From positions 64,001-128,000 of IMG/VR virus record IMGVR_UViG_3300028591_000079: DNA of 64,000 bases, one strand, 5' to 3'. Of this stretch, positions 1-26,921 are shown one piece after another (within the stretch, counting starts at the first letter, position 1; each line of letters opens with the position of its first letter). The DNA comes from a virus (taxonomy: Duplodnaviria; Caudoviricetes). The position numbers and the translations under genes were made by a program. The notes below the pieces were generated by a model. It was given only the letters and a program-made list of their open reading frames with translations. It did no database searches and was not told where the DNA came from.

Positions 1-72
1 ATCTTTATTTTTACGTAAGTTTGGGTGAAGGTGTGTCTGTATCATATCGAAGTCGCTCATTTTAGTCCTCCT

Positions 73-929: not shown

Positions 930-940
930 CTTATACTCCT

Positions 941-1411: not shown

Positions 1412-1442
1412 AATTCTACTCCTTTATTTATTTAGTTGTTAT

Positions 1443-1479
1443 AAAAAGAAGGGGATCTAAGTCTATAACCTAAATCCCC
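1443..1479 (-). terminator. intrinsic terminator
   Basis: GGGGATTTAGG/CTTAGATCCCC stem followed by TTCTTTTT on minus strand. Confidence 0.7.
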
Positions 1480-1499
1480 GCGTTCTCTGTTAGTCTTCT

Positions 1500-1724
1500 T
1501 TATTGTTCTACAAAGACTGCCTTAAAGTTTCTTGGCAATTTAGAGTATGTTCCAGTGCTACGCTTAGATAAAGACTTCAACGTATTATACAGCGGATACA
1601 CATTGTCAGTAATAAATTCTTTCAATGTTTTACCGTTATACATTACATACAATTTACCAGCTTTACCTCTATATTGAGCCATATTCTCTTTAGTAATTAC
1701 AATTTGTTCATTTACTTTTTTCAT
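1500..1724 (-). CDS. hypothetical protein
   Basis: ORF with AAGGTG RBS. Confidence 0.6.
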   Translation of the reverse strand: MKKVNEQIVITKENMAQYRGKAGKLYVMYNGKTLKEFITDNVYPLYNTLKSLSKRSTGTYSKLPRNFKAVFVEQ

Positions 1725-2025
1725 TTCTTCACCTTTATTTTTCTTGTTTATTTACTTTTCTTTCCTGTCTTTCATTATTTCTTACGCTTCTGAGTGATTG
1801 GTGTTGGTTTTGTTTTTATAGGTGTCAGTCTATTTTTTGCCATGATTATACCTCCTTTATGACTTTAGAATTGTTCGATGATTGGTTGTAATGCTGTTGC
1901 TGTACTGTAATACTTTCTTTGACAATCTACAGCATCGTTATGGCTTGAGAAAACACCCAGAACCATACCGCTATTAGGGATAACTACACGATACATTTTA
2001 CACTCCTTTTTGTTTGTTCGTATCT

Positions 2026-2054
2026 ATTTTACATTAATTTTTAGGTTTTGTCAA
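2026..2054 (-). promoter_or_regulatory. sigma70-type promoter
   Basis: TTGACA-17 bp-TAAAAT on minus strand. Confidence 0.7.
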
Positions 2055-2336
2055 TTAATTTTCTTTAATCTTTATCGCAACTACTGTATAAGAGTGGCCG
2101 CCATATTCATCTTCAGTAAGAACACTGCCCAAGTCTATATCCTCTAAGACCTTATTCTCTGCCTGGTTTTGGATAAATGTTATAAGCACAGAAGCAGTAT
2201 TATATGAATCACCCAACTGAGTATCATCATCAAAAGCCTCTACCTCATAACCCGGCATATTTTCTTTCACCGCGCTTTCAATACCCGCAGCAGATATATT
2301 CAAGTCTAATTCATTCAAAATGTCTTGCACTGTCAT
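2055..2336 (-). CDS. acidic hypothetical protein
   Basis: AAGGAG RBS, operon packing. Confidence 0.7.
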   Translation of the reverse strand: MTVQDILNELDLNISAAGIESAVKENMPGYEVEAFDDDTQLGDSYNTASVLITFIQNQAENKVLEDIDLGSVLTEDEYGGHSYTVVAIKIKEN

Positions 2337-2347
2337 GTTTCACTCCT

Positions 2348-2533
2348 TTATTCAAATACTACTTCTTCTGGTTTCATTCCCATGTGTTTTGCGACTCTTT
2401 GTCTGATGGTATCGATAATGTCTTCTTCGCTATCATACAACAAGAATCTTTCATCCAGGAACACCCACCCATTTATCAAAACTCTGTAATCATATTTACC
2501 AAGTTTCTGCAGCGTGATTATATCTCTGTCCAT
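2348..2533 (-). CDS. hypothetical protein
   Basis: AAGGAGG RBS. Confidence 0.7.
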   Translation of the reverse strand: MDRDIITLQKLGKYDYRVLINGWVFLDERFLLYDSEEDIIDTIRQRVAKHMGMKPEEVVFE

Positions 2534-2550
2534 ATTATCCTCCTTTATTT

Positions 2551-2865
2551 TTATAAGCAGTCTGTTCCGTTCAGTTTCAAAGTATCAATGTCGTAGTAAT
2601 GATAATCGCCACAACAATCATCTTCACCTACTTCACAATTTACATACTTTTCGCCTTTATACCATTTAACACCATACGAATACTCTTTGTTCAGTTGTTT
2701 CATTACCTTCACAGCAGTATCGTAATCAGTATAAACCCCACAAGGACAACCCATATAATTTTCATCAGGCTGCCATTGTCTTACTACATATACCTTCTCA
2801 ACCGGAAAGCACATACCATCTGATTCTCTCTGTTCTACAATGTGTGTTTTTACTTGTTTTGTCAT
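2551..2865 (-). CDS. hypothetical protein, paralogue of the C-terminal part of 3633-4028
   Basis: shared VYxV...(V/I)(Y/F)xDxxxA...LNKxY...HY(Y/F) pattern; RBS. Confidence 0.7.
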   Translation of the reverse strand: MTKQVKTHIVEQRESDGMCFPVEKVYVVRQWQPDENYMGCPCGVYTDYDTAVKVMKQLNKEYSYGVKWYKGEKYVNCEVGEDDCCGDYHYYDIDTLKLNGTDCL

Positions 2866-2884
2866 TTTATACTCCTTTTGTTTT

Positions 2885-3136
2885 TTATTTTGTTTCTACT
2901 TTTTCCAGATATTTATAACCACCATTTTGACACTTATCCCATTCTTCATGTTCTTCAGTTGTCCAATCATAATCACTTCTGCAGGTATCTACAACATGGG
3001 TCTTTTCATCATTCTCTAATAAATCCGCTACTTGTTCCACACTCATATTCTCAATGTCTTTATCAGATTCAATGATTAATGTTTGACTCACATATACAGA
3101 TACCAATTCTCCGATTTCAATTTTGTGTTTTGCCAT
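2885..3136 (-). CDS. hypothetical protein (start MAKHK)
   Basis: AAGGAGG RBS before 3136. Confidence 0.7.
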   Translation of the reverse strand: MAKHKIEIGELVSVYVSQTLIIESDKDIENMSVEQVADLLENDEKTHVVDTCRSDYDWTTEEHEEWDKCQNGGYKYLEKVETK

Positions 3137-3299
3137 CTTTACCTCCTTTATTTTGTTTTGTTGCAAATGATCTACATGTTTCGATTATCTTATCTAAAGC
3201 CATTATAGTCATTATCGAATCGCCACCCGTTTTTTCTATAGTTTCTTCATAGATAGAAATAAGTAAGTTTGCCAATTCTTCCGCTGTCATTTTGCTCAT
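3117..3299 (-). CDS. hypothetical protein
   Basis: AAGGAGG RBS. Confidence 0.6.
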   Translation of the reverse strand: MSKMTAEELANLLISIYEETIEKTGGDSIMTIMALDKIIETCRSFATKQNKGGKDGKTQN

Positions 3300-3359
3300 T
3301 ATTTACCTCCTTTGTTGTTTTTGTTTTCTACATCCTTATTATCACCCAAGTTTAGAAAA

Positions 3360-3617
3360 CTAATCCTGAAAAACTCTCTTAATCGTTATTTCATATTCTT
3401 CAACATCTGCACCAATCAAAATCGCAATTGTCTTTTTGTTTGTGTATTTGTCTTTATTCAATGCAATTGAAAGCCTATCTTCTTCCAAAAAATTGCCCTC
3501 ATTTGTAGCTTCTTCAATAACATCATACACTCTTTCAGTGATTTTGTTTTCTTTGCCAAGACGTTCATTTGCGTATGCCATAGCTTCATCAAATTGCTCT
3601 TTCAAACTTTTGCTCAT
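3360..3617 (-). CDS. hypothetical protein
   Basis: AAGGAGG RBS. Confidence 0.7.
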   Translation of the reverse strand: MSKSLKEQFDEAMAYANERLGKENKITERVYDVIEEATNEGNFLEEDRLSIALNKDKYTNKKTIAILIGADVEEYEITIKRVFQD

Positions 3618-3632
3618 AATGACCTCCTTTAT

Positions 3633-4028
3633 TTATTTGGTTATATTCATAGAGACAACTTCAAAGTAATGTAAATCATTTGTATAGCATTCATCATAAT
3701 CTACTGATTCAAAGTCTCCTTCTTCACTAAAGATACAACTTTTACCATACATTTTATTCAACCCTCTGGCTTCTTCAAGTGCTCGTTCTCTATCGGCAAA
3801 TACATAGATAGTTTCGTTTTTCATCATATTATCTTCTTCGCCAATGATTTGTTTAGTTTCATTCACCAGATATATTTTGATTTGATCTATCCCGCGCGCC
3901 AAGTTATCATCTCCATCACCTTCATAAGTTTCCAGCAATTCAGAATCATATCCGGCTTTATCTAATAAGTTTTCAAGTGGTTCATATTCATTTGCTTCTA
4001 CACGAATATTATATACATTTTTTGCCAT
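3633..4028 (-). CDS. hypothetical protein
   Basis: RBS; paralogy with 2551-2865. Confidence 0.7.
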   Translation of the reverse strand: MAKNVYNIRVEANEYEPLENLLDKAGYDSELLETYEGDGDDNLARGIDQIKIYLVNETKQIIGEEDNMMKNETIYVFADRERALEEARGLNKMYGKSCIFSEEGDFESVDYDECYTNDLHYFEVVSMNITK

Positions 4029-4046
4029 AGTTCACTCCTTTAGTTT

Positions 4047-4307
4047 TTATAAGTTTGGAAAGATAATCAATACGTTCTGGTTCTTGTTCTCTGCCTTTAC
4101 TGCCGGGTCTTTATCGTATCCCCTGTAGTAATCATCCGCTGCCATATCTTTAGCGTTATCAACTTCAAACATTAACACATCACCATACGAATTACCTTCT
4201 TCATCTTGACTCATAATCACCGCAGCATCTCCACCTAATCGTTTCTTTGCTGCTTCTAATTCTTTTATCAAGTCATCTATTGTTTTTATTGTGCATACGT
4301 TTTTCAT
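4047..4307 (-). CDS. hypothetical phage protein (SQDEEGN motif)
   Basis: RBS; motif recalled from small phage proteins. Confidence 0.7.
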   Translation of the reverse strand: MKNVCTIKTIDDLIKELEAAKKRLGGDAAVIMSQDEEGNSYGDVLMFEVDNAKDMAADDYYRGYDKDPAVKAENKNQNVLIIFPNL

Positions 4308-4318
4308 AGTTTACTCCT

Positions 4319-4654
4319 TTATTTTGTTTGTAATTTCTTTGCCAGTTGTTTTGCCAAGAGTTCAATGTTCCAGGATGGTTCTCTCATTTCAGATTCGCCA
4401 TAGTGTTTTCCAACCCAACAGCGGATAAAGTCTTCAATCTGGTCTGATAATGGCGCGTCTGATATGTTTGCTTCTACCATTACTACCTTGCCAAAACAAA
4501 ACACATCACCATCATATAAGGCCAAATATTTTTCTGCTTCTGCTTTGGATTTAAATTTCTTGGCTTTATTTCTATCATATGTAGGTTCTGTATCTGGTTC
4601 TTCTGTCAAATATCCCAAATACATATCATCTTCATAAACTTTTGCTAACTTCAT
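4319..4654 (-). CDS. hypothetical protein
   Basis: GGAGG RBS; overlap with upstream gene. Confidence 0.7.
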   Translation of the reverse strand: MKLAKVYEDDMYLGYLTEEPDTEPTYDRNKAKKFKSKAEAEKYLALYDGDVFCFGKVVMVEANISDAPLSDQIEDFIRCWVGKHYGESEMREPSWNIELLAKQLAKKLQTK

Positions 4655-4875
4655 GCTTCTACCTCCATGTTATAATATTCCCCAACCTCAAATTCAGTAT
4701 CAGGGTGTTCTCTTTTTAGTTTTATCATTACCTTCGCAGCAGATTCAAAGTTGGGATAATACAAAGCCATATCTACTGTTCTGGCAAGGTGATAATAATA
4801 GTCATCGGTATCATCTATATAAGTATAATCACCGTAATCTTTATCAAACACTTTTATTACGTAGCGCTTTTCCAT
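4651..4875 (-). CDS. hypothetical protein
   Basis: AAGGAGG RBS. Confidence 0.7.
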   Translation of the reverse strand: MEKRYVIKVFDKDYGDYTYIDDTDDYYYHLARTVDMALYYPNFESAAKVMIKLKREHPDTEFEVGEYYNMEVEA

Positions 4876-4886
4876 ATTATCCTCCT

Positions 4887-5327
4887 TTAGTTTTTATTCA
4901 TTAGGCTATTCAAGTTTTCAATGTATTTGTTTGCTTCTTGGATTGTCTCAAATTTATAAGGCTTACCATCAGCATCACAAACCGTATCTTGCTTGAGTTG
5001 TTTTACCGTATATGTTCCATCCTGATTATAGGTGGGTTCATATTCCGGCAATTCATACCAGTCCCACACATAACCATCCGCGTCAAAGATGTCTAAGATT
5101 GTGCTGATGTCTGTTTTGGAAAGGTCAAGGCTATCAACATCAAATGTATCAAAGTCTATCCCCATTACATCACAATAAGTTTCAGGCGTTATAGTATCGT
5201 CTTTAATATATTGTTCGCACAGTTCTCTTAGTTGTGCCACAGTATAGATATTGGTTTCACTCAATGTATCTTTCCAAGTCTCGTCTTCACAGTCTTCATT
5301 TGGATAATACAATTTATATACTCGCAT
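4887..5327 (-). CDS. acidic hypothetical protein
   Basis: RBS; C-terminus shared with 5638-6021. Confidence 0.75.
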   Translation of the reverse strand: MRVYKLYYPNEDCEDETWKDTLSETNIYTVAQLRELCEQYIKDDTITPETYCDVMGIDFDTFDVDSLDLSKTDISTILDIFDADGYVWDWYELPEYEPTYNQDGTYTVKQLKQDTVCDADGKPYKFETIQEANKYIENLNSLMNKN

Positions 5328-5338
5328 CTTATACTCCT

Positions 5339-5626
5339 TTATTTTTCATATAAGTCCATTACAGTATCCAAAGTATCAACAAACTCTCCAGGCAACGGTT
5401 TAATATTAGTGGTATCAAAACTAGCAAATGGTCTTACATGGTCTGGACAAAGTTTCTCAAAGCCCCTGAAGGAACAGTCAAACACACTCCAACTACCCCA
5501 ACAACCAGAACCTTTATATCCTTGTCCCCACGTTCTAATATATAAAATATTGTTAGAGTCTATTGCAAACTGGACACCATTACGCTGATACAATTTTTTA
5601 CAATACAGTTTAGGTTTCTTATTCAT
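5339..5626 (-). CDS. hypothetical protein
   Basis: AAGGAGG RBS. Confidence 0.7.
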   Translation of the reverse strand: MNKKPKLYCKKLYQRNGVQFAIDSNNILYIRTWGQGYKGSGCWGSWSVFDCSFRGFEKLCPDHVRPFASFDTTNIKPLPGEFVDTLDTVMDLYEK

Positions 5627-5637
5627 TTCGGCCTCCT

Positions 5638-6021
5638 TTAGTTTTTGTTCATTAGATTTAACATATTGTCTATAAACCTATTTGCTTCTTCAAAGGTTTC
5701 AAAAGTATCTATAACCTTATTTCCATCTTCTATGTCTACCACATCATATTTGTTATTGTTATATGTTGCTCGGTATTTGACAAAGTTCCAGGTTATAAAG
5801 TTGATACTAAACCCATATTCTTCAGTCAAAACATTCATCAAAACTTCTTCTACATGTCCATCATCCATTTCACTTGTAGGTGTGTTCTCTTTATAGTCTT
5901 CCAAGGTTAGTTTAAAAGAGTGTAGTATAGTAGGTAATTCTTCGTCAAACTCCGGATAATCTTCTAAGTCTTCCAAATCCCAATCTATACTATCCACATC
6001 TACTAATACTGTTCTGCTCAT
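5638..6021 (-). CDS. acidic hypothetical protein (start MSRTV)
   Basis: start just after upstream stop; C-terminus shared with 4887-5327. Confidence 0.7.
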   Translation of the reverse strand: MSRTVLVDVDSIDWDLEDLEDYPEFDEELPTILHSFKLTLEDYKENTPTSEMDDGHVEEVLMNVLTEEYGFSINFITWNFVKYRATYNNNKYDVVDIEDGNKVIDTFETFEEANRFIDNMLNLMNKN

Positions 6022-6022
6022 T

Positions 6023-6622
6023 TTATTCATCCTCATCTTCATCATCTCTAGGTGGGTCAACATCATAGCAAGAAAAAGTCTCACCATCTGAATAACCTTC
6101 CATATAGATTTCGTTTCCACCTTCTTCACAATCCCAATCAAACTGAACACCTAACTCAGCCATTTTATGTAAGACTGGTTCAGGTGGCGCCCAAGCAGTA
6201 TCAAATTGTAAATAAAAGGGTTCGTTGTTTTTTATTGCCTCATCTAAATTGTCCAAATTGCAATCGTCATGAGCCAAATCCCACTTAGTTCCCCAGTTAT
6301 CACAATCCCATTCATACCAATTACTAGGCTTTACCCCTGTTCTCTCAGCCTCTTTGTTCATCCATTCTTTAGCATATAAAAAGTCTATCACCCCATCACG
6401 AAAGAAATCATTATCCGGTTCTTTCCCCAATCTTTCTTTAGTTATTCCGGCTTCTTCCATTAGGTTTTCATCACTTTCGCTCATATTCAAGTCGTTATAG
6501 AGTTTCATATGTTCAGGCTGAGGTATAATGTTATCAAAGCAAAAGTTCCCATTCTTTACACATTTCTCTTTGAACACTTCTGGATTTGAGATTGTCATAT
6601 GATTTTCACACCAGTTTGGCAT
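6023..6622 (-). CDS. DUF1281/YubB-like ferredoxin-fold protein
   Basis: MPNWCEN start, WYEWxxxNWGTKW, FDTAWAPP motifs. Confidence 0.85.
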   Translation of the reverse strand: MPNWCENHMTISNPEVFKEKCVKNGNFCFDNIIPQPEHMKLYNDLNMSESDENLMEEAGITKERLGKEPDNDFFRDGVIDFLYAKEWMNKEAERTGVKPSNWYEWDCDNWGTKWDLAHDDCNLDNLDEAIKNNEPFYLQFDTAWAPPEPVLHKMAELGVQFDWDCEEGGNEIYMEGYSDGETFSCYDVDPPRDDEDEDE

Positions 6623-6642
6623 ATTATCCTCCTTTGTTTATA

Positions 6643-7017
6643 TTATCGTTGTTCATTAGTTAAGAGTCCTAACAATACTTCCCCATTCTCTTCAACCAAT
6701 CTCGCAGCCGTCAATAAATCATCTGTCCCCCAAAAATCTATATGTAAGTCTTGTAAGTTTCTGGAAGCCACACAAGTAAAGAAGGCTACATCTGGATTAT
6801 TGTTTATTTTCTGCGCTACTTTGAATAACTTATATCTATCTTCTTTATCCAACTTAGCATCAAAACCAATAAACTCTGGATACATCTCCCTTGCTACTTT
6901 TGCTCCTTCACCCGTTAGCATTTTATCAAGTTTAGGATTATCAACTATACAACAAGGGATTTGAAAGTGTTCGTCTATATTGTAGTTCTTCAACAGTTCT
7001 TCTTTATTTGGTTTCAT
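6643..7017 (-). CDS. hypothetical protein
   Basis: AAGGAGTAGAAA RBS. Confidence 0.7.
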   Translation of the reverse strand: MKPNKEELLKNYNIDEHFQIPCCIVDNPKLDKMLTGEGAKVAREMYPEFIGFDAKLDKEDRYKLFKVAQKINNNPDVAFFTCVASRNLQDLHIDFWGTDDLLTAARLVEENGEVLLGLLTNEQR

Positions 7018-7588
7018 TTTCTACTCCTTTTGTTATAAAACCTTTGACTAATTTACGACCCCACAACTTAAATTCTACTCGCAAGTCTGTATCAACCTCT
7101 CGTAAAACTTTTTGTATCTTAGGTGTCATAGCATATTTTACAAGTTTCTCTAAGTCTGCTTCTATCTCTTCTTGTCTTCCAGCCATTGCACCATAAAGAC
7201 TAAATTCAAATGAGATAGTTATGACCTTTTTTCTTGTGTTTAAGTCTATCCCGCGCTGAATCAAAACTTCATTACTTCTGTTTTGTTTGTCGCGCTTAGT
7301 TAGATTATTTCCATACCAGCAAAAAGGCTCTAATACACCACGCAACTTATCACGAATCAAAGTATAATCACTCAAAGTCTTGTCGGTATCCATCATTTTC
7401 ATATCACTAACCTTGACCCTGAATATCTTATACTGACCACCCATATGACCTTTTCTACAAGCATCAATTAAAATACTCTGCGCTTCACTATAATCACAAG
7501 TTGCAGAACGATAATCCCACAATCTAAAACCTACATTATATACATTATCAAATCTGCCAACTAAATATATATAGTCAATATTATCCAT
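7004..7588 (-). CDS. hypothetical protein
   Basis: AGGAG RBS, operon packing. Confidence 0.7.
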   Translation of the reverse strand: MDNIDYIYLVGRFDNVYNVGFRLWDYRSATCDYSEAQSILIDACRKGHMGGQYKIFRVKVSDMKMMDTDKTLSDYTLIRDKLRGVLEPFCWYGNNLTKRDKQNRSNEVLIQRGIDLNTRKKVITISFEFSLYGAMAGRQEEIEADLEKLVKYAMTPKIQKVLREVDTDLRVEFKLWGRKLVKGFITKGVENETK

Positions 7589-7589
7589 C

Positions 7590-7934
7590 TTATTCTCCTA
7601 TTGTTTTTACATAATTATTGAAACCACCACACAACGAAATCATATTCTTAAACTCTTCATCACCATACACACTTATCATTCCGCTTGATGTATTGTAATG
7701 AATTAGTTGTATATGTTCGTTCTTTTTCACCCAGTCCAATAACTTAGACCATACATTACAGCTCGGCATATCAAACTCTTCTTTATGCCAATCTATAACA
7801 CCCTCACCAATTACGGCTTCAAGTATCTGTATTCCTCCCCACGCCAAATACTTTCCGCCCGCCGCATCGCAAAACACAGCACTAACTGGCACATCTTTTT
7901 CTTTCAATATGTTTATAATTTCTTCTCTGGTCAT
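7590..7934 (-). CDS. hypothetical protein
   Basis: AAGGAGG RBS. Confidence 0.7.
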   Translation of the reverse strand: MTREEIINILKEKDVPVSAVFCDAAGGKYLAWGGIQILEAVIGEGVIDWHKEEFDMPSCNVWSKLLDWVKKNEHIQLIHYNTSSGMISVYGDEEFKNMISLCGGFNNYVKTIGE

Positions 7935-7947
7935 AATTCAACCTCCT

Positions 7948-9096
7948 TTATTTGTTATTTACCACTTCTAAAAACTTATGCACATCACCTATCATTTCAT
8001 AAGTCATAGCAGTTTCACCCCACATAAAGACATTATAGGTTTCCATATCACTATTTACACACCACACAATACAATGGTCTAATCCTTCAAATTCAATCAT
8101 TGGAATATTGTCGTGGTAAAACCGGATAGTCAAAACCGTTAGTCCATCGGTAGGCAAAAGGTTTATAATGTTTCTATGGTTTTCCTTTGGTCTCCCCATA
8201 TACTTATCCAATAACAACTTCGCAGCAATCCCAAAGTCCTCATTCTCTTTATCCCCCGCAACAATCTCAAATAATTCTTTTAAGGTCATTGTCGGTTTGC
8301 AGACTTCTTTGATTTCCACATCGTCATTTCTCAAAAACCTAGCAGCCATCAAAGCATCTATAAAGTCTAATTCTGGATAGTCTTTCAAATATAATTCACA
8401 CCCAGTCAAAGCAGTTGTAAGTCTAAACGCTTCTCTTGCTGCCGCCTCACAGAGTTCCACCTTGGTTTTTACTTCTTTCGGGTCAAACATTTTTACTGTA
8501 TCAAACCCTAAATATGTTCTTTGCCGTTTGTCATTTTCAAGACCTTCGCCAGATGGTAAAAAGTTTATTGCTCTTCCTTCCATATAGTCAGTCCAAATAT
8601 CCTTAGCACAACACAACAAACCAAACAGATTGAATACATTATCTACATTCAACCCACTAGTCGCTTGTTTAAATGTTTTGTCTATGATTTCTTTTTCGTG
8701 TGGTAATAAGTCTCTGGGTGTTCCTAATTTACAATGTGTCCCATACCAACTCAGCGCTCCACGAATTTTTGAATCCATAAGTGCAAAATCATTCATATTC
8801 TTATTTACATTTACTACATCATTTACAAAGTATTCACCATCAGCAATAGATTCAAACCTACTACTTTCTTTACCGCTTTGATAATTCTTGCCTACAACAC
8901 ATACCTTGATATTACCTTTTGCAAATGCTTCTTGAAACGCTATAATGCTTTCTTTGCAGAAACAATACCAAGCACCACCCAACAACAACTGGGTCATCAA
9001 TTCTTTCAAGTCTGTATAAAAATATGCTTTGCCCTGATAGGTGCCATGATTTTCTTTAAACCACAACAGAGCCATTTTTTGTTCTTTCTTTGCCAT
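7948..9096 (-). CDS. hypothetical protein (382 aa)
   Basis: long ORF, strong RBS. Confidence 0.8.
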   Translation of the reverse strand: MAKKEQKMALLWFKENHGTYQGKAYFYTDLKELMTQLLLGGAWYCFCKESIIAFQEAFAKGNIKVCVVGKNYQSGKESSRFESIADGEYFVNDVVNVNKNMNDFALMDSKIRGALSWYGTHCKLGTPRDLLPHEKEIIDKTFKQATSGLNVDNVFNLFGLLCCAKDIWTDYMEGRAINFLPSGEGLENDKRQRTYLGFDTVKMFDPKEVKTKVELCEAAAREAFRLTTALTGCELYLKDYPELDFIDALMAARFLRNDDVEIKEVCKPTMTLKELFEIVAGDKENEDFGIAAKLLLDKYMGRPKENHRNIINLLPTDGLTVLTIRFYHDNIPMIEFEGLDHCIVWCVNSDMETYNVFMWGETAMTYEMIGDVHKFLEVVNNK

Positions 9097-9164
9097 AATT
9101 CTACTCCTTTTAGTTCTAGTTGATAAAGCCCCAAGGTTTGTATTCTCTCAGGGCTTTTGTTTTC

Positions 9165-9626
9165 TTATTTCATTGCTTCTAAGATACAGTAGATAAACGA
9201 TACAATATGCTTACACCCATACCCCATATTCTCTGCGTTCTTTTCAGGTCTATCTGTTTTCTTTTTATAGTTAGTCAGCACCTTATCGGTATATAAAGCA
9301 CAACCACTATGCAGATTACCTTTCAAAGCACCGCCCAAAGTATAGTCAGTGCAATCACAATCTACCTTTATCTCTTTATCTAACAGGTCTTTTGGTCTTG
9401 GAAACTTACCCGCAACCAAATCGTCAGTAGTTAAACTCCCAGGCTCAACACCATAGAAAGCAACCTCAACCTTATACAGTTTATTGTTGCTCCCTTTTGC
9501 CAATGCCTTGAACGATAACTTCTTTTGTGATAAATCGTATCTGGGGTTCTCAAACTTATCAAACTCTATATCACTATTATCACGACCCATTGCTTTACTG
9601 TTATCTAAAAATTCTTTCGTTGTCAT
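9165..9626 (-). CDS. SWIM-type zinc-finger protein
   Basis: VDCDCTDY...GCKHI; paralogue of 56460-56987. Confidence 0.75.
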   Translation of the reverse strand: MTTKEFLDNSKAMGRDNSDIEFDKFENPRYDLSQKKLSFKALAKGSNNKLYKVEVAFYGVEPGSLTTDDLVAGKFPRPKDLLDKEIKVDCDCTDYTLGGALKGNLHSGCALYTDKVLTNYKKKTDRPEKNAENMGYGCKHIVSFIYCILEAMK

Positions 9627-9796
9627 ACTTCACTCCTTTATTCTACTATAAATTCTATTTGGTTTCCATTCACTTTATCAAACACATCATATTCTGCTTG
9701 ATTATAAAGGTCTTGGAATTCTTTTAGTGTGTATGTTTTTGCTCCGCCCATACCACTTGCCCACCATACTCTTACCTTTATCATTTTATACTCCTT

Positions 9797-10351
9797 TTAG
9801 TTTTCGTTAGATGGTCGATATTTCTTGAACAGTTTTCCATTTATATTTACCTTTACAGGAACAAATATATCTACACCTTTCATTTTCTTGTCCAATATAA
9901 TACCAAAGACTTTATTATATGCTTCCTCTGCCACATAATGACGATTTGCTTTGCTGTTATGTATCAATGAGCAATTAGTATTTCCATAGTGATTTGTTTT
10001 TGCTTCATCAACATCATCCACTGTAAAACTTATCGTCACTCCACCTTTTTGATTTGTGACAGCCCTTGAATTTGCACGAACAAATAAAGCACGAATAACT
10101 TTTTTAGTGATTTCATTGATTTGCTCATCTTGCATAGACTTTACTTGATATTCTGGTAAAGCATCTAAATCTACACATTTGATATGAGGAACACAATAAT
10201 CACCACAGTTTCTTGCTATTGTTCTAAACCGTTGTAATGCCATTTTTTCATCAACACCAAACCAATCCATATCTTGTTTAGAAAAGGTTTGTGTGCGATA
10301 TTGACTTTCATGTCCTGGTTTGATTTGACGATATACTAAATAAAATTTCAT
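9797..10351 (-). CDS. hypothetical protein (start MKFYL)
   Basis: AAGGAGG RBS before 10351. Confidence 0.7.
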   Translation of the reverse strand: MKFYLVYRQIKPGHESQYRTQTFSKQDMDWFGVDEKMALQRFRTIARNCGDYCVPHIKCVDLDALPEYQVKSMQDEQINEITKKVIRALFVRANSRAVTNQKGGVTISFTVDDVDEAKTNHYGNTNCSLIHNSKANRHYVAEEAYNKVFGIILDKKMKGVDIFVPVKVNINGKLFKKYRPSNEN

Positions 10352-10370
10352 GGTTATACCTCCTTTATTA

Positions 10371-10889
10371 TTAATCTCTGTCAAACAACAATTTACATTT
10401 TACTTCGTTGTTTTCCTCTATAAAGTCCAAAGCTGCAGCACATTGGTCAAACACCCAAATATCTATGGACTCTTTTGTTGTATCACTACCCCAAGAATGA
10501 TTGTAGTTTCCATAGTGCACTCCCTCACCATAACCATCTCTACCACCTGAAATACAATCACTTATAAGATAGCAACCATCACCAACAATACTTTCTAACT
10601 TTTTTGTTATCTTGTTGATTATTGGCATTAGGACTTTCTTTCGTTCAATGTCATATCCATCTTTACTTAAATCTCCCCGCACATCAGCCTCAATATAACA
10701 ATGATACCCTAACACATCTAAGGTATCCGCAACTCTACCGCTTGTTGATGTCGCCTCTCGTAATAATTGATAAGCTTCTAATGTTAATTTTTTCCCATCA
10801 AACAACAACTCATCTGTAATCTGTTCATTGTTGTCAAAATATTTCATAAGCACTTCTTTTATTGCTTGTTTAGTTGTCAATTTATCCAT
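10371..10889 (-). CDS. hypothetical protein
   Basis: AAGGAG RBS. Confidence 0.75.
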   Translation of the reverse strand: MDKLTTKQAIKEVLMKYFDNNEQITDELLFDGKKLTLEAYQLLREATSTSGRVADTLDVLGYHCYIEADVRGDLSKDGYDIERKKVLMPIINKITKKLESIVGDGCYLISDCISGGRDGYGEGVHYGNYNHSWGSDTTKESIDIWVFDQCAAALDFIEENNEVKCKLLFDRD

Positions 10890-10909
10890 GACTTACTCCT
10901 TTGGTTTTT

Positions 10910-11015
10910 TATTGTTGATTCTGTCTTTTTTCCACAACTCGCAAAGACAGAAAGAAGCGAGCCAACAGCAGGACTCTAAGTTAGGAGTAGAATAGAAAAC
11001 CTGCCTGTGGAAACC
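10910..11015 (-). ncRNA. candidate pseudoknotted structured RNA
   Basis: five complementary segment pairs in about 105 intergenic nt (see findings). Confidence 0.55.
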
Positions 11016-11016
11016 A

Positions 11017-11862
11017 CTAAGCCTTGTTCTCTGCCACACCTAAACGATTCCTGATATATTGTTCCAAGAGTTCTTTATTGTTATCAACCAAGGACGCATA
11101 GTTTATTAGTTCTTGGTCATTTACTCTTGATAATCCATAGTCTTTATTCCAGTCTGTATTTGCTTTGATTCTATACAAGACACTTAACAAACCACTCTTA
11201 TCATTCATATTCAAGATGTTTGGTGTTAGTTCGTGTTTGTCCAGCATAGTAATCAGCAAATCAACAGGATAACAATCGACTTCAACTTTACGATTCATTT
11301 CATACCCACCATTCTCTGTATAGTATTTCCATAACAGTTCATATGATGGTTTGTTCATAAGTTCAACCAAGCGTATATTCTTATTTGCATACTTGGCGAA
11401 GTCTTTTTGATTGAAATCTGACCGAAAGTATTTGATTGTTTTGACTGAGTATTTTTCCAACAATTCTTTTTTTGCTGTTGGGGACAATTCAAATCTACCT
11501 CTCCACAGTTCATAAATATTACAGACATCGTTTTCTACTAATCTTACGAACCAATCTAAATCTTTCATACCAACTTTTAGTTTTGATTCATACTTGATAC
11601 TTGGGTCATAACAAAAGTCTATAATTCGTTGTAAGATTTTGTGAGATGTTTGTTTATTATATGCTCTGATTACATTCAATTTATATTTACCCATTATTTC
11701 CATTATTTGTTCGGGTTTCAATTTGTCTATCTGCTTTATATTAAACAATTCCAACAGATGTCCGGTTTTTGTGCTTATGATTGTTGTATATAATTTATTT
11801 GCATCAAACTTAGACACAAACAAATCTTTCAACATTGCTACTTCACTAAAACTATTAAACAT
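11017..11862 (-). CDS. hypothetical protein
   Basis: 281-aa ORF, AGGAG RBS. Confidence 0.75.
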   Translation of the reverse strand: MFNSFSEVAMLKDLFVSKFDANKLYTTIISTKTGHLLELFNIKQIDKLKPEQIMEIMGKYKLNVIRAYNKQTSHKILQRIIDFCYDPSIKYESKLKVGMKDLDWFVRLVENDVCNIYELWRGRFELSPTAKKELLEKYSVKTIKYFRSDFNQKDFAKYANKNIRLVELMNKPSYELLWKYYTENGGYEMNRKVEVDCYPVDLLITMLDKHELTPNILNMNDKSGLLSVLYRIKANTDWNKDYGLSRVNDQELINYASLVDNNKELLEQYIRNRLGVAENKA

Positions 11863-11927
11863 ATTTTACTCCTATTAGTTATAAAGTCCTGAAAGGTGTT
11901 GATTCTCTCAGGACTTTGTTGGTTTAT

Positions 11928-13229
11928 TTAGAACTCCAACCGCATGGTCTTTGCTCTTTTTACACCGACAGGATTTTGAAAGTTATCGTTGCCAGTGATT
12001 CCCCATATTACAGGACAATAATCAAATTTCAAATTATCTATACAGTCATATCCATCAGTCATACAAATAAACACATCATATTTCTTTTTGTTTTCTTTTA
12101 TCCAATCGAAACTAGATGCGATAGTTGTTCCACCAAAGGATGCCAACTTATAGTCTTTGATTTTATCCTGCGTTGGTTTTGTATAATTCACAAGGGTATC
12201 CTCATGAACTTGTGTTGAAAAGCACCAGATGTCAATGTCAAATGATTTAAAACTGTGCATAATCTTTGCTATATGCGCCAAGAATTCATGCACTTGTTCA
12301 TCACCAACCGACCCTGATGTATCAATCGCAATACCTAACTTGATATGCGTATCTGTGCTAGTTCCTGGAAGTATATTACCCATACCCCAACTTCTACGAG
12401 ATGGACGCTTCCAAGAAAAGTCAGATTTGATAAACGCTTTCAGATAGTTAGATAAGAAACCACGCCAATCAAATGGAGGTTCCTGAAACAAGAAGTCAAA
12501 TGCTCGTTCTAAGAAACTATCAACCTTACCTGCATCTTGACCACCCATTTGTTTTTGGACTGCTTGGACTTGGGCTTTGATTCTGCCTGTGTCTGTTTCA
12601 TCCATACTATCTTGCCCGCCATGGTCATCAAACTGTTTTTGTCCTTTCGCTTGTTTTTCTAACCACTTACCAACAGCACCCATCATTTCTTGTTCTACTT
12701 GTTCAGGTGTTTTGCCATCGTGGTCTTTCTTGAAGTCCTCTAACAGTTTTTCATATATCTGCTCACAAGTCATATTTCTATACTTTTCATCATATAAACC
12801 AAATTGCCCTTTCGGATTTTCTGGTTTGATTAACTTGTCGCTATGATACATTTCACCAATCGGTTTAGGCTTACCATATCTATCACTGTTATTTACAAGG
12901 TCTGAATTGATAGAGTAGTCAGTAGCATAATTCCATAACTGAGGATTCCTGCTACCCCGTCTTTCCATAGTCAGATTCAACAAATGCCCTACTTCATGAC
13001 AGATTATAAACAAGATATTATCAACTGACATTTCGTGCATATCCTCGTGTTCTACCATATACTTCCAGTTGAAATAAATACCTTTACCATCTGTCCAGGC
13101 TATTGAATCGTGGTCAGACTCTACAAATTCAACCCCGACCCTTGCAGATATTGCCGCTAAGAAACTATGCTTTATCCACAGTTTTGTATTTACGGCTTCT
13201 TGCATTTCGTCTTTATTTACTGTTATCAT
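11928..13229 (-). CDS. metallopeptidase-like + VWA domain protein (DUF2201 type)
   Basis: AWTDG, HEVGH, WNYATDYSIN, WKRPSRR, MIDAS DTSGS, GGT, TDGY. Confidence 0.9.
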   Translation of the reverse strand: MITVNKDEMQEAVNTKLWIKHSFLAAISARVGVEFVESDHDSIAWTDGKGIYFNWKYMVEHEDMHEMSVDNILFIICHEVGHLLNLTMERRGSRNPQLWNYATDYSINSDLVNNSDRYGKPKPIGEMYHSDKLIKPENPKGQFGLYDEKYRNMTCEQIYEKLLEDFKKDHDGKTPEQVEQEMMGAVGKWLEKQAKGQKQFDDHGGQDSMDETDTGRIKAQVQAVQKQMGGQDAGKVDSFLERAFDFLFQEPPFDWRGFLSNYLKAFIKSDFSWKRPSRRSWGMGNILPGTSTDTHIKLGIAIDTSGSVGDEQVHEFLAHIAKIMHSFKSFDIDIWCFSTQVHEDTLVNYTKPTQDKIKDYKLASFGGTTIASSFDWIKENKKKYDVFICMTDGYDCIDNLKFDYCPVIWGITGNDNFQNPVGVKRAKTMRLEF

Positions 13230-13363
13230 ACTTACCTCCTTTTAGTTTAGGATTACACAAATGACGGCTGCGAGTATCAACAAAATAATCAACATACACA
13301 GCATCATACCATTTACACTATCTTTTACACTATCAGTTATTGGATGCATATTTACCCCCTTTA

Positions 13364-13537
13364 TTATTCTTTATAAAATACATGCATCCAAGATTTTTTA
13401 TAATCACTGCTACATGTAAAGTGTGTATCATCTCTACTACAATGTTCCCTGGCTTCCTCTAAGGTCAAGCCAGTCATTATAGTTGTTTTTCTTTTATTCG
13501 GGTCACCCCATACTTTTACAATTTTATAAGTAGCCAT
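13364..13537 (-). CDS. small phage protein (GLTLEEAxxHC)
   Basis: AAGGAGG RBS before MATYK. Confidence 0.7.
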   Translation of the reverse strand: MATYKIVKVWGDPNKRKTTIMTGLTLEEAREHCSRDDTHFTCSSDYKKSWMHVFYKE

Positions 13538-13551
13538 ATTTACCTCCTTTA

Positions 13552-13914
13552 TCATTCTTGTTCATTATCATCTACACCAACACTTATCATACCATTACCC
13601 AAGTCTTTTACATTCAACTTTTCAGATAATTCCTCAGCCTCCTGTTCTCTCATTTGTTTTTCCATTTCTTTTTCGTGGTATTCTTTCAACAAGTCCGCCA
13701 CATTTTCATCAAACCATTTAGATTCGTGCAGGTGATATTCATAGTTGTCCTCATTGTTTAGTAAGGATTCCATTTTATCACCAACCTCAACTTTACACAA
13801 TAAATCATTAGCCATATTTAAACCTATCTGTTCGTGGTCATCATTCTCTTGCCACACCACCATCAAGGCTTTCATAATTGCTTTGATTTCTTTATCTGTA
13901 AATAGTCTTGCCAT
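13552..13914 (-). CDS. hypothetical protein
   Basis: AAGGAG RBS. Confidence 0.7.
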   Translation of the reverse strand: MARLFTDKEIKAIMKALMVVWQENDDHEQIGLNMANDLLCKVEVGDKMESLLNNEDNYEYHLHESKWFDENVADLLKEYHEKEMEKQMREQEAEELSEKLNVKDLGNGMISVGVDDNEQE

Positions 13915-13973
13915 AACTTACTCCTTTATAAATTGTTGGGCAGTTTTATATCTTACCCAGGATAGTTATGTTA

Positions 13974-15206
13974 TTAGAAGTTAGTTTTAGATGTGCAGAA
14001 TTTTGCGACTGCTTGAATATCTTTATGACTTACATACGACAACAGTTTATTATTCTGTGTGATATGTTTAGTCAAAATCGCTTGCCAATCCGCTCGTTTC
14101 AACTTCTGGCAGGCTTCAAACAGATTATGCACAGCCTCAACCAATGCCTTACCCTCTTTTGATTCTTTATTTGGGCGACCATTTTCATCTTTTTCTGGTT
14201 CGTCCATCTGATTCAAAGTGGCAATACAACCTGTCAATGTTCCGAAAAATCCGTTTATATCACCATCATCACGAAAACCTTTACCTTTGAATAAGATTTC
14301 CGCTGGGTCTTGATATTTTTCAGAGTTTTTCAGATATTCCAACAACATATTTGATACTGCTCCACCAAAATACATACTTGCAAAATGGAACACTTCATCA
14401 TAACTTGCATCCGTATTCATACTATATAACTTGATGAATCGTGACCAAGAACGAGGTGTGCCAAATGTATATGAATTGTTGTTGTAGTTATCAGTATCAA
14501 ACAACTTATCAGGATTACGCTTTACAAACGCAGCCACCATTTGTTTAATCTTTTCTGGTGTGATTCCTGCGATAAAAGGTTTTTCCTGTGCTGGTGTTGT
14601 ATCCAAGCCTAAGACATAATCAAACCACACATCCGCATTGGTTTTTACGAATATATGCCCGAATCTATCTTTGACTGGCGCTTGGATTTCAGTTGAGTAA
14701 GCATTGACCCCTGACTGATTACCTGCCGCAATGATACGATAACCATCTGGCAAGAAGTAATCACCAATTCGTCTTTCTTGAACCAACTGTTGAACAGCAT
14801 TTTGCATAGCCGCAGGTGCATTATTCATTTCATCAAAGTATAACAACCCACGACCATTTGGATTTGTTGGTAAGCATTTAGGAATCGCCCAAGTTGTCTT
14901 AGTCATTTCCTTACCATACTCATTTACTTTTTCAGGCATAGGAATACCAATCAAGTCAGCAGGTTCCATAGATGATAAAGGATAGTAGAAGTATTCAAAC
15001 TCTTTATCCTCTTGTTTCATCTTGCTTACAAACTGTTCTACCGATTGAGTTTTGCCAATACCAGGGTCACCCCAAACAAACAAGTTCAAGTTAGCCCGAT
15101 ACATACAATCAATCAATCTTGGTAATTTGTTTAAGACTATCCCCGAATCCATCAGTTCTTTGATTTCACGAGATACATTTACTTCATTGTTTTGATTTTT
15201 AGCCAT
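13974..15206 (-). CDS. MoxR-like AAA+ ATPase
   Basis: Walker A GDPGIGKT, Walker B YFDEMN, AAGN, DRF, TPRSW; near VWA gene. Confidence 0.9.
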   Translation of the reverse strand: MAKNQNNEVNVSREIKELMDSGIVLNKLPRLIDCMYRANLNLFVWGDPGIGKTQSVEQFVSKMKQEDKEFEYFYYPLSSMEPADLIGIPMPEKVNEYGKEMTKTTWAIPKCLPTNPNGRGLLYFDEMNNAPAAMQNAVQQLVQERRIGDYFLPDGYRIIAAGNQSGVNAYSTEIQAPVKDRFGHIFVKTNADVWFDYVLGLDTTPAQEKPFIAGITPEKIKQMVAAFVKRNPDKLFDTDNYNNNSYTFGTPRSWSRFIKLYSMNTDASYDEVFHFASMYFGGAVSNMLLEYLKNSEKYQDPAEILFKGKGFRDDGDINGFFGTLTGCIATLNQMDEPEKDENGRPNKESKEGKALVEAVHNLFEACQKLKRADWQAILTKHITQNNKLLSYVSHKDIQAVAKFCTSKTNF

Positions 15207-15274
15207 ATTCTACTCCTTTTTTTAGTTTTTTGGTGTTGATTTTGTTAGGTTTTATTTATTGACTACCCTAACTT

Positions 15275-15823
15275 TTAGTCATCGGCTCTGAAACAGTAAT
15301 CGTGACTTGCCAATCCTGCTTCATAAGCCCATCTTGTTGAGGTATTACTGTAAATTGCTCCACATATATACCCCCCTAACTTTATATTGGTGACGGTTGA
15401 ATAGGTTTTTACTCCCTCAACTTCAACCCCATCAATATTCAGTTTTACATATTTAGGACAACTTGGACTATACCGCATCCATTTTCCACCCAAGTCCTCA
15501 ACACTTACATCATCATAACCACTCACCATTTTGTTATAGATGTAGTTTTGAACCTCTTGGAATGTCCGTCCTAAATATTTTTCACAAACCAAATCAGCCC
15601 ATCCGTCTTTGCGACTTTCTATTTCAATTTCTGCTCCCCAATGGTCTTTTATATTAAACTTTGTCTTGCATCCACTAATAGTAAAGTCACCAGTATCAGG
15701 ATTATAACTTTCAATGGTTCGTTTCAAGTAGTTTCGTTTGTTCTTGATGTCATATACCCTAGTCAAAGGTAAATGCTTGTCAAAATAATACTCAACCACT
15801 TCTTTTATTGTGATGTCGTTCAT
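15275..15823 (-). CDS. hypothetical protein
   Basis: AAGGAGG RBS. Confidence 0.7.
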   Translation of the reverse strand: MNDITIKEVVEYYFDKHLPLTRVYDIKNKRNYLKRTIESYNPDTGDFTISGCKTKFNIKDHWGAEIEIESRKDGWADLVCEKYLGRTFQEVQNYIYNKMVSGYDDVSVEDLGGKWMRYSPSCPKYVKLNIDGVEVEGVKTYSTVTNIKLGGYICGAIYSNTSTRWAYEAGLASHDYCFRADD

Positions 15824-16003
15824 TTTACACCTCCTTTATTTCTTTTGTTGCTAAGAATAAACAAACACTAGCAATAATACAGTGTCCGATATTTGCATTG
15901 TTAGGTATTGATACAAACAAAAACGCAGTCATTACAATTAGCAAGAATAACAACCACACATTTGATACCATCTTTTTAGTGTCTTTCATACTTACCTCCT
16001 TTA

Positions 16004-16609
16004 TTAGTATCTATTGTTATCTTTATAGTCCTCAACACCATACTTTTCTTTCATTTGCTCTTTCCACTCGTTTATTTCTTTTTGTGTTGATAGACTAGTG
16101 ATTTCATCAACAGGTTCATCATTGTAGTTATCATAGACATACAGGCGTTCAATACTTCCGTTCCAAGCGTCACTCAAATTACTTGCATATCTACTCAAAT
16201 CTACTTTCAATTCCTTGCTGATACCTACAAAACCACAAGTGCCGCTATCCCATCTACATCTTGTATCGTCACTCTTATTGAAAGCAAACGACACCATACC
16301 ATGCACATAAGCACCTAAGGCATACGCTTCATATTTGTCTTTTCCATAGGTTTCGTCAAGGTATTTTTGAAATGATTCTATGTCTTGTTCCACATTTCCA
16401 GTTTCAGGCTCCCAACTTTCATCAGTAGCCAACCTTTCAAACCCCTCACGATTTTTACCTATCCAGGCTTTGTTGTTCGCTTTAAAGTCCTCAACCACAA
16501 ATTCAGGTTCGCTTTCATCATACTCACAATAGCCTACATATCTATCTTGCTCGGTTGTTTCTATTACTTCAACCTTGCCACTTTCTAACAGTTTCTTTTC
16601 TACCGTCAT
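16004..16609 (-). CDS. hypothetical phage protein (YVHG...WDSG type)
   Basis: RBS; motif recalled from phage proteins. Confidence 0.75.
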   Translation of the reverse strand: MTVEKKLLESGKVEVIETTEQDRYVGYCEYDESEPEFVVEDFKANNKAWIGKNREGFERLATDESWEPETGNVEQDIESFQKYLDETYGKDKYEAYALGAYVHGMVSFAFNKSDDTRCRWDSGTCGFVGISKELKVDLSRYASNLSDAWNGSIERLYVYDNYNDEPVDEITSLSTQKEINEWKEQMKEKYGVEDYKDNNRY

Positions 16610-16738
16610 ATCTTTACTCCTTTATTTTTAGATGTTCTTGTTCAATTTCGTGTCTCATTTGTCTAAGGTTTTCTAAATATGCCCTAAACGATTCTACCTT
16701 ATTCACGATTTTCCACATTAGCGCCGCTCCTACCTTAT

Positions 16739-16996
16739 TTACAGTTCATAATTCCAACGGTTCTTGTCTATTGCTTTTTCTAAGTCTAACATCGCACAAA
16801 AACCGCTCACATCTGCCAAAACGCCGTTCAATATTCGTTCTTGTTGTCTAATCGTTATTCCACTATCTACACAATATTCATCAAACGCCGCTAGTATGCA
16901 CAAATTCTGCTCATACATCGCTCGTCTATAAACCTTATCATACTGATTCGCGTTCCGTCTTGCTATACTTTTTACTAATTTATTCAAGTTTGTCAT
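16739..16996 (-). CDS. hypothetical protein
   Basis: AAGGAGTAG RBS. Confidence 0.7.
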   Translation of the reverse strand: MTNLNKLVKSIARRNANQYDKVYRRAMYEQNLCILAAFDEYCVDSGITIRQQERILNGVLADVSGFCAMLDLEKAIDKNRWNYEL

Positions 16997-17027
16997 TTTT
17001 CTACTCCTTTATGTTTTTTGTTGTTCC

Positions 17028-17161
17028 ACTAGCGCCGCTCATAGCCCTAGTCTTTTAGTATATACTTGGACTAGCACCGCTTATAGCACCAACCATAGTA
17101 TATACTACCCACTCGCACCGCTAATAGACCATAATAACCCTACTAGCGCCGCAAATAGACC
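17028..17161. repeat. four helically phased direct repeats ACT(A/C)GCRCCGCnnATAG
   Basis: copies at 17028, 17070, 17111, 17142. Confidence 0.75.
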
Positions 17162-17313
17162 TACATACCAAATATTAACCCCATAGACCACTTTACACAT
17201 ACCGCAATAAGACAACTACAACCTAACACATTGAAAAAATAATCTAGTGCCTTGTTGATTGTGTCTATTGGATTTTTCTTGTAGTTTAATCTATCCAAAA
17301 ATTTGTTATACAT
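17161..17313 (-). CDS. 50-aa putative membrane peptide, first gene of the leftward arm (not in ORF track)
   Basis: AAAGGAGTAGAATAAA-ATG; MYNKFLDRL...GLIFGM. Confidence 0.55.
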   Translation of the reverse strand: MYNKFLDRLNYKKNPIDTINKALDYFFNVLGCSCLIAVCVKWSMGLIFGM

Positions 17314-17474
17314 TTTATTCTACTCCTTTCTAAACCAACCCATACTATCTTTCTATCAACGAAAAATAGCAGGCAATAACTAACCGATACAATATAACCT
17401 ATACCAATTCGTTATTATCTGCTATCTACTTGAATCTATATTGGTCTTGGAATCACTCGCCCCTTGACATAACA

Positions 17475-17525
17475 CAATATAACACAATCAAAAACAAAAG
17501 CAAGAAAAATTAAGTATATACTTTT
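17475..17525 (-). promoter_or_regulatory. leftward early promoter 1 with upstream palindrome
   Basis: TTGCTT-16-TATATT with TG extension; 26-bp block duplicated at 17669-17694. Confidence 0.55.
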
Positions 17526-17643
17526 GACTTGCCTTGACTGGAATATAAAAACTTGACAAAAACAAAAACAAGTCAAGCCCCCGCCCCCCTGTCAAGTCGC
17601 AACCGATAAAATAAAACGAATCACCCGCCCGCTTTACATAGTC

Positions 17644-17694
17644 AATTAAAACACAAAACAAAAAAAACGCAAGAAAAATTAAGTATATACTTTT
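17644..17694 (-). promoter_or_regulatory. leftward early promoter 2 with upstream palindrome
   Basis: TTGCGT-16-TTTAAT with TG extension; same 26-bp block. Confidence 0.5.
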
Positions 17695-18158
17695 TAATCG
17701 CCTTTATATTATACTATTAAAGAAAAATTTTAAACTATAATAAACGCAATTTAAACGGGCTTTTAAAGGGCTTGTTTTTTTATAACTTTACACTATACCA
17801 AAAACAAAAAACACGCTTTTAAACGCAAAAAAACACCTATTAAAATAGTATATACTAAAAAAACGCCTTTAAGGGCTTATACTGGAAACCCCCACCAGTT
17901 AACAGTGCAAAAGATGTAGTTAGTCCTTTTGAGTCTCTGAAGTCCTTTTGAGTTCATGCAGTCTTTTGTGGTCTCTGGGGCTGGATCCTTTGAGTCTTTA
18001 TTTGGCCAATTATAGGATTTTTGATTGGTAAGTTGTGGGATTATGTTTTATTGATTTTACTGATTAATTATAGATTTTTCTTTAAGTGGGTGTTATAATT
18101 AATGTTTGAGTTTAGAATTAAAAGCGATATAGTATAACAAACGAGGAGTATAGTCATT

Positions 18159-18419
18159 ATGAGTAGAAGAAAAGAATTTTTATTATGGGGTGTAAAAAAG
18201 TCTAGGAATGGTATATATTGGAGTGATGGGTTAGGATTATCTTTTATTGATGGTGGTTTGATGACGGAATATGATGGTAAGTATGATGGATCAGGGAAAG
18301 ACATTGGTTGTTGCTTAGTAGAGATGGGGTATTGGTTAGGTGGTAGGACAAAGGTTGATATAAATGTAGCTGGTAAAAAGGAGTTATTGTTTTATTTATT
18401 GAAGAAAGCAAAGGTATAG
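18159..18419 (+). CDS. hypothetical protein, C-terminal LL-helix array
   Basis: first ORF of rightward operon; GAGGAG upstream. Confidence 0.65.
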   Translation: MSRRKEFLLWGVKKSRNGIYWSDGLGLSFIDGGLMTEYDGKYDGSGKDIGCCLVEMGYWLGGRTKVDINVAGKKELLFYLLKKAKV

Positions 18420-26838: not shown

Positions 26839-26840
26839 GT

Positions 26841-26914: not shown

Positions 26915-26921
26915 TTTTTAT

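Follow-up and report, generated by a model that had tools for sequence, protein, structure and literature searches.

Nested double pseudoknots are, to our knowledge, rare. In HDV-like ribozymes, a G·U wobble lies at the cleavage-site end of P1, P1.1 comprises 1–2 bp and P3 comprises 3 bp. A regulatory pseudoknot of a different kind is found in phage T4, where gene 32 is autoregulated through a 5′ pseudoknot operator followed by an unstructured A/U-rich leader that extends to the ribosome-binding site (RBS). We know of almost nothing on post-transcriptional control in the operons of giant gut and rumen phages. In the nested double pseudoknot of HDV, an inner pseudoknot is embedded in an outer one, and J1/2 varies among HDV-like ribozymes (PMC4836649). 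Class 1 flaviviral xrRNAs combine a three-way junction with an L3–S4 pseudoknot in a mechanically resistant layout (PMC7603331). A separate catalogue is described as comprising 10,006 viral structured RNAs (PMC10690425).

An RNA element between two genes of gut and rumen phages

We analyzed bases 64001–128000 of the record of a 231-kb virus with 32% G+C; this whole 64,000-nt stretch is called the window below. A long run of minus-strand genes occupies window positions 1–18400, and the element lies within it, in a 127-nt spacer that separates two minus-strand genes, here termed A and B (Table 1). Upstream (5′) of gene A are genes for a MoxR-type AAA_5 ATPase and a DUF2201 metallopeptidase/VWA protein (window 11928–13229 and 13974–15206, both minus strand). 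The order of these two genes was kept in the related contigs with long enough flanks. For the DUF2201 protein, the PHROGs label ‘HNH endonuclease’ disagreed with the Pfam domains.

DNA similarity searches against 50,697 phage records, in near and distant modes, returned nothing, and DNA-pattern scans of IMG/VR and of GTDB genomes were likewise empty; a search of IMG/VR for relatives of either flanking protein also gave none. Protein searches yielded gene A homologues with 93–40% identity as well as more distant ones, and gene B homologues were found in the same way. The loci that we compared (L003–L023, L033 and L034–L036) came from the contigs of these homologues and from a DNA-pattern scan of JGI metagenomes, with one of the seven loci from the metagenome scan (L024) proving to be a false positive. 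In every related locus, gene A was followed by a spacer of ∼120–141 nt and then by a gene B homologue of ∼170 aa. We found ∼10 distinct sequence variants of the element, always between homologues of genes A and B, and within the 231-kb genome the element is single-copy (the next match had an E-value of 0.02). The RNA core was 56–83% identical to that of the window, compared with 43–58% for gene A DNA and identities down to 40% for the flanking proteins. The element is conserved as a structure in a family of ∼230-kb gut and rumen phages; the study codes in the ENA records (GLEN20, TONG22 and XIEF21) presumably denote ruminant gut samples. In two relatives with 81% identity (L005:3965–4174 and L006:3974–4183), an early stop codon cuts gene B to 69 aa and the RNA element is unchanged.

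The first-pass annotation had suggested comparing the element with known RNA families. Using the Rfam 15 covariance models, the only matches in the window at gathering score were tRNAs located elsewhere, and at E ≤ 10 a search of the 211-nt region around the element gave two chance miRNA matches (E-values of 1.8 and 3) and no ribozyme or riboswitch model. Judged by these searches, the element is a new RNA family, matching none in Rfam 15. A tRNA or tmRNA was also rejected, as neither ARAGORN nor Rfam detected one at the element; six tRNA genes (Rfam RF00005) are clustered on the plus strand at window 26763–28344. We further rejected a small ORF in the spacer, since length differences in the loop of hairpin P2 are not multiples of three and the reading frames have different stops between variants.

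Covariation and the shape of the fold

Minus-strand positions 11013–10914, corresponding to an RNA of ∼100 nt, fold into helices P1, P2 and P4 and the pseudoknot P5, in which the P4 loop pairs with the 10–11 nt immediately 3′ of P1 (Table 1). With a and b denoting the 5′ and 3′ strands and including a putative helix P3, the strand order is P1a, P2 hairpin, P3a, P4a, P5a, P4b, P1b, P5b, P3b. The arrangement is compact, without linkers at P5a–P4b, P4b–P1b and P1b–P5b and with linkers of 0–1 nt at P1a–P2 and P2–P3a. All of the complementarities that the first-pass annotation had listed for P1, P2, P4, P5 and a UGUUG-type P3 are present on the minus strand where it placed them, and the one forming P5 is an exact 10-mer in the window.

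Table 1. Window positions of the RNA element, its predicted strands and the flanking genes
Feature	Position	Strand	Description
Gene A	11017..11862	-	ORF, 281 aa, all-helical; stop codon UAG 11019-11017, followed by the RNA element
P1 5′ strand	11013-11006	-	UUUCCACA; 3 nt past the gene A stop; pairs with 10929-10936
P2 5′ strand	11005-11000	-	GGCAGG; pairs with 10967-10972
P2 loop (L2)	10973..10999	-	27 nt; CUCC 10987-10984 within UUCUACUCCU, complement of AGGAGUAGAA
P2 3′ strand	10972-10967	-	CCUGCU
Putative P3 5′ strand	10966-10963	-	GUUG; P2-P4 junction strand
P4 5′ strand	10962-10957	-	GCUCGC; pairs with 10937-10942
P4-P5 linker	10953..10956	-	UUCU, nearly invariant; UAUCU in L033
P5 5′ strand	10952-10943	-	UUCUGUCUUU; in the P4 loop; exact complement of 10919-10928
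P4 3′ strand	10942-10937	-	GCGAGU
P1 3′ strand	10936-10929	-	UGUGGAAA; abuts P4 (5′ side) and P5 (3′ side) with no linker
P5 3′ strand	10928-10919	-	AAAGACAGAA; pseudoknot strand
Putative P3 3′ strand	10917-10914	-	CAAC
Tail of the element	10890..10913	-	A-rich, unstructured; gene B SD GGAG 10899-10896 and spacer
Gene B	10371..10889	-	ORF, 172 aa; homologue in all related loci

The window sequence by itself carries no significance, given that its nested minimum-free-energy fold had a z-score of only −1.55 and that ∼0.4 inverted repeats of 10 nt are expected per window by chance. The comparison with relatives is decisive for the shape of the predicted fold (P1, P2, P4 and P5). In a structure-blind MAFFT alignment (A3), 94.1% of the cells pair and 11 of 29 pairs are changed on both sides; when the 3′ partners were slid by 1–3 columns as a control, 45–61% of the cells paired and 0–1 pairs were changed on both sides. 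Similarly, 14 of 30 pairs are changed on both sides in a covariance-model alignment that includes the divergent locus L033, compared with at most three in the shifted controls. These pairs are distributed over P1 (4 of 8), P2 (1), P4 (4 of 6) and P5 (5 of 11), and since the covariance model never included P5, the support for this helix is independent of the fit. The first-pass annotation had looked to covariation in related phages for confirmation of a multiply pseudoknotted minus-strand RNA, and this is what the relatives provide: on these comparative grounds, P1 is the closing stem of a three-way junction that also contains hairpins P2 and P4 and is locked by P5.

Apparent mismatches of P2 in the alignments stem from a misalignment of the window's own lineage by one column. 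When the sequences are parsed by hand, P2 emerges as a helix of 6 bp whose outer pair is G–C, A–U or G·U depending on the lineage and whose second pair is A–U in L033. For P5, one locus (L034) has a G·U intermediate at a position that is G–C or A–U elsewhere. The numerous G·U pairs show that the structure belongs to the sense-strand RNA, in line with the minus-strand assignment made from the window alone. A cruciform at the DNA level was rejected, since the G·U pairs are A·C mismatches on the other strand. The inner ACUC/GAGU stem that had also been proposed within the P2 loop did not hold up beyond the window lineage, as the loop varies between 15 and 27 nt, and in sequence, among the relatives.

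P3 would turn the locked junction into a nested double pseudoknot. Its 5′ strand, GUUG, is invariant in all variants, and CAAC follows P5 at a distance of 0–5 nt in nine of ten variants, the exception being L033 with CAAU, where a G·U pair could still form. Because P3 shows no compensatory change, we infer its pairing from conservation and consider it unproven. In the window lineage, GGCUUA across the gene A stop codon (11016–11021) is also complementary to UAAGUC before the gene B ATG (10890–10895) on the minus strand; these 6 bp would close the whole A/B spacer.

Nearest-neighbor energies point to a competing nested fold, consisting of P2 and a P3/P5 hairpin, that is at least as stable as P1, P2 and P4 together. 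The two are within ∼1–4 kcal/mol of each other in most variants, and in L009 the competing fold is more stable by 9 kcal/mol. P5 alone is worth approximately −10 to −11 kcal/mol. The helices may all coexist, or they may alternate.

Comparison with HDV-like ribozymes and flaviviral xrRNAs

If P3 is real, the strand order matches that of HDV (RF00094 and relatives), with an outer P1/P3 pseudoknot (P1/P2 in HDV) enclosing an inner P4/P5 pseudoknot (P3/P1.1 in HDV) and with the additional P2 hairpin occupying the variable J1/2 position (PMC4836649). Covariation is seen in P1, in P4 (the equivalent of HDV P3) and in P5 (the equivalent of P1.1), whereas GUUG/CAAC (the equivalent of HDV P2) is conserved without covariation. 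The HDV core, in contrast, is missing, as the first-pass annotation had noted alongside the strand order. The catalytic C of J4/2 (PMC4836649) is absent, with the equivalent linker between P5 and CAAC comprising 0–5 nt (none, U, CU, AAAU or AUUA) and no conserved C. The first P1 pair is U–A in all 15 alignment rows rather than the G·U of HDV, the inner pseudoknot has 10–11 bp instead of 1–2 bp, and the hairpin stem has 5–6 bp instead of 3 bp. Furthermore, there is no HDV-type P4 and no match to the HDV-type covariance models.

These differences bear on the possibility that the element is a new self-cleaving ribozyme, with HDV-like topology and a different active site, that would process the polycistronic mRNA at the A/B junction. 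Besides the strand order, the invariance of several unpaired nucleotides speaks for such an activity, and phage intergenic regions often contain small ribozymes. However, none of the Rfam ribozyme models matched even at E ≤ 10, P3 does not covary, and in L033 a cut at the 5′ end of P1 would fall inside gene A. Together with the departures from HDV at the J4/2 equivalent, the first P1 pair and the P1.1 equivalent, this makes self-cleavage very unlikely in our view.

The locked three-way junction also resembles the defining layout of class 1 flaviviral xrRNAs (PMC7603331). P1, P2 and P4 meet with linkers of 0–1 nt and the GUUG strand, and the loop of the second hairpin pairs with the sequence just 3′ of P1 through the strongly supported P5, with its five covarying pairs. 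An RNA of this type could stall a 5′-to-3′ exonuclease (for example RNase J) at the base of P1, giving rise to a stable gene B transcript. The resemblance is incomplete, though: inspection revealed no counterpart of the S1–S3 pseudoknot that xrRNAs require, that is, no conserved complementarity between the region 5′ of P1 and the junction, and L033 has lost the G located 2 nt 5′ of P1. In addition, its helices are far longer than those of xrRNAs, neither the sequence nor the covariance models show any similarity, and the element resides in an intercistronic spacer of a DNA phage rather than in a viral 3′ UTR. A literature search for phage xrRNAs returned no report. We therefore rate an xrRNA-like element as quite unlikely.

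Taken more broadly, the element could represent a new functional class that has an HDV-like nested double pseudoknot but lacks the active site of HDV. It would act either as a new ribozyme cutting at the A/B junction or as the first xrRNA-like RNA in a DNA phage, where it would protect the message downstream against a bacterial 5′-to-3′ exonuclease. We regard this as unlikely; should the element self-cleave or block an exonuclease, a new class would be established. A second RNA with the strand order of HDV and unrelated to it would serve studies of RNA folding and structure prediction well, as it comes with natural compensatory changes and a defined gene context. It would also point to post-transcriptional control within the lengthy operons of giant phages of the gut and rumen.

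A proposed role in RNA fate at the gene A/gene B junction

The position of the element relative to the two genes is nearly constant. P1 starts 2–7 nt past the gene A stop codon in nine lineages, and the distance from the end of P3 to the Shine–Dalgarno (SD) sequence of gene B is 10–16 nt in nine of ten. The tenth, L033, has a different layout, with the 5′ strands of P1 and P2 inside the gene A coding sequence, the stop codon in the P2 loop and ∼60 nt between P3 and the SD. Moreover, in this locus the element is separated from gene B by a promoter-like sequence (TTGACA, 17 nt, TAAAAT with an upstream TG; 11 of 12 consensus positions; L033:3635–3663, plus strand). The layout of L033 argues that the element belongs with the 3′ end of gene A, or with the junction itself, more than with the RBS of gene B, and the promoter-like site together with the SD distance weakens models that depend on the gene B SD.

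From these sequence comparisons, we tentatively favor, with a little less than even confidence, a module that acts in cis within the polycistronic mRNA and governs what happens to the RNA where genes A and B meet, affecting its stability or processing and the translation of gene B. The fold would present a mechanically stable barrier at the junction. After processing, it would protect the 3′ end of the gene A segment, provide the gene B segment with a structured and protected 5′ end, or both, and it may insulate the two cistrons. The xrRNA-like reading overlaps with this explanation and is the most specific version of the barrier idea. In all lineages, P1 would be unwound by ribosomes finishing gene A, so that the fold and any masking of the SD would respond to gene A translation. 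A YUCC motif in the P2 loop, held out as a floating single-stranded anti-SD-like sequence, could mask the gene B SD and thereby tune, and perhaps damp, its translation. Protection of a 3′ end would need no more than a plain hairpin, and the elaborate fold therefore hints at something more specific, such as catalysis, a ligand or a protein. Should it only tune one gene junction, the element would be a well-supported new RNA family with a narrow distribution.

A protein partner could be encoded by gene A or by gene B, with the RNA serving as an operator for autoregulation or as the RNA subunit of a particle with these proteins. The co-occurrence of the element with both genes in every variant is consistent with such a role, and the conserved single-stranded YUCC, UUCU and GUUG could be protein contacts. 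As in the T4 gene 32 leader, an unstructured, A-rich segment lies between a pseudoknotted RNA and the RBS of a phage gene, and the element is conserved with that gene. Unlike that operator, the element has a far more complex fold, and gene B does not encode a recognizable single-stranded DNA- or RNA-binding protein. Indeed, neither flanking protein matched a Pfam or PHROG family, their AlphaFold models (pLDDT of 88.5 for gene A and 80.5 for gene B) had no significant fold match in the PDB, and none of the three resources revealed an RNA-binding or other known domain or fold in either of them. Any gene B mRNA made from the promoter-like site 3′ of the element in L033 would also lack the operator, another departure from gene 32. 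Binding by one of the two proteins is thus improbable, if conceivable, on the sequence evidence.

Another possibility is a riboswitch, in which a ligand of the knotted aptamer would decide between formation of P1 and masking of the SD by CU-rich strands (the P2 loop or the 5′ strand of P1). The highly conserved junction and linkers would suit an aptamer, and the two competing nested folds of similar energy would suit a switch; in six of seven variants, the 5′ strand of P1 indeed pairs with the gene B SD in the nested minimum-energy fold. Against this reading stand a gene B product that is a phage protein without a family match rather than a transporter or metabolic enzyme, a narrow distribution with a single gene context and the lack of an Rfam match. 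In L033, moreover, the 5′ strand of P1 is not pyrimidine-rich and the SD is distant. Taking both sides together, we strongly doubt that the element is a riboswitch.

For the favored cis-acting module, a contact between the P2 loop and the SD would be the translational part. Although the loop differs in length among the relatives, it keeps just YUCC(W)(W), at differing loop positions, so that 3–4 nt of the anti-SD motif are conserved. In seven of seven variants, YUCC was the best or near-best partner of the gene B SD (−5.9 to −10.3 kcal/mol), and no other segment paired with it as consistently. The pairing involves 4–7 bp without consistent covariation, and several other CU-rich segments also fit the SD. 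We set aside pairings of the SD with the 5′ strand of P1 and with the UUUCU linker, as many CU-rich segments fit GGAG and the pattern fails in L033.

In the window, the complementarity of the loop to RBSs extends further. The 10-mer AGGAGTAGAA has six minus-strand copies at RBS positions, and the single copy of its complement lies in the P2 loop (10983–10992). This bears out the part of the first-pass annotation that described an antisense copy of an RBS, the loop being an exact 10-nt complement of six leaders. The ‘class of early RBSs’ that it was thought to address did not emerge, however: ∼37 genes of the minus-strand block carry the RBS consensus AAAGGAG(G/U)(A/U)RA, and AGGAGUAGAA is an ordinary variant of this near-universal sequence. 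The RBSs are unusually uniform over these ∼37 consecutive genes (window 73–17313, minus strand), lying 4–8 nt before the ATG, and an A-rich stretch precedes most of them.

A trans-acting small RNA whose loop silences genes with AGGAGUAGAA (AGGAGUAGAAU) leaders, as had also been proposed, would make use of the exact 10-nt match, and a 9-mer of the P2 loop, CUACUCCUA, recurs in the loop of a terminator-like hairpin in a CU-rich small-RNA region of the same phage. Nevertheless, the leaders it would target are ordinary consensus variants of the gene block, the seed is reduced to YUCC in the relatives, and at the element itself we found neither a promoter-like site nor a convincing terminator-like one that could give it a transcript of its own. 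A simple hairpin would also suffice for this purpose, which leaves the conserved knot unexplained. We accordingly give the trans-acting silencer hardly any credence. A conserved promoter made up of TTGTGG and the CAAC region was considered and rejected, as it was seen weakly and in some variants only.

The P2 loop shares with the CU-rich anti-SD loops of bacterial and phage sRNAs and of RBS-masking leaders a single-stranded CUCC in a hairpin loop that is complementary to GGAG. In contrast to these, it is embedded in a large knotted fold within an mRNA spacer and comes without transcription signals of its own. The CU-rich small-RNA region occupies genome positions 61400–62100 on the minus strand, ∼2–2.6 kb before the start of the window, and its CUACUCCUA-containing hairpin lies at ∼61.5 kb, ∼13 kb away from the element.
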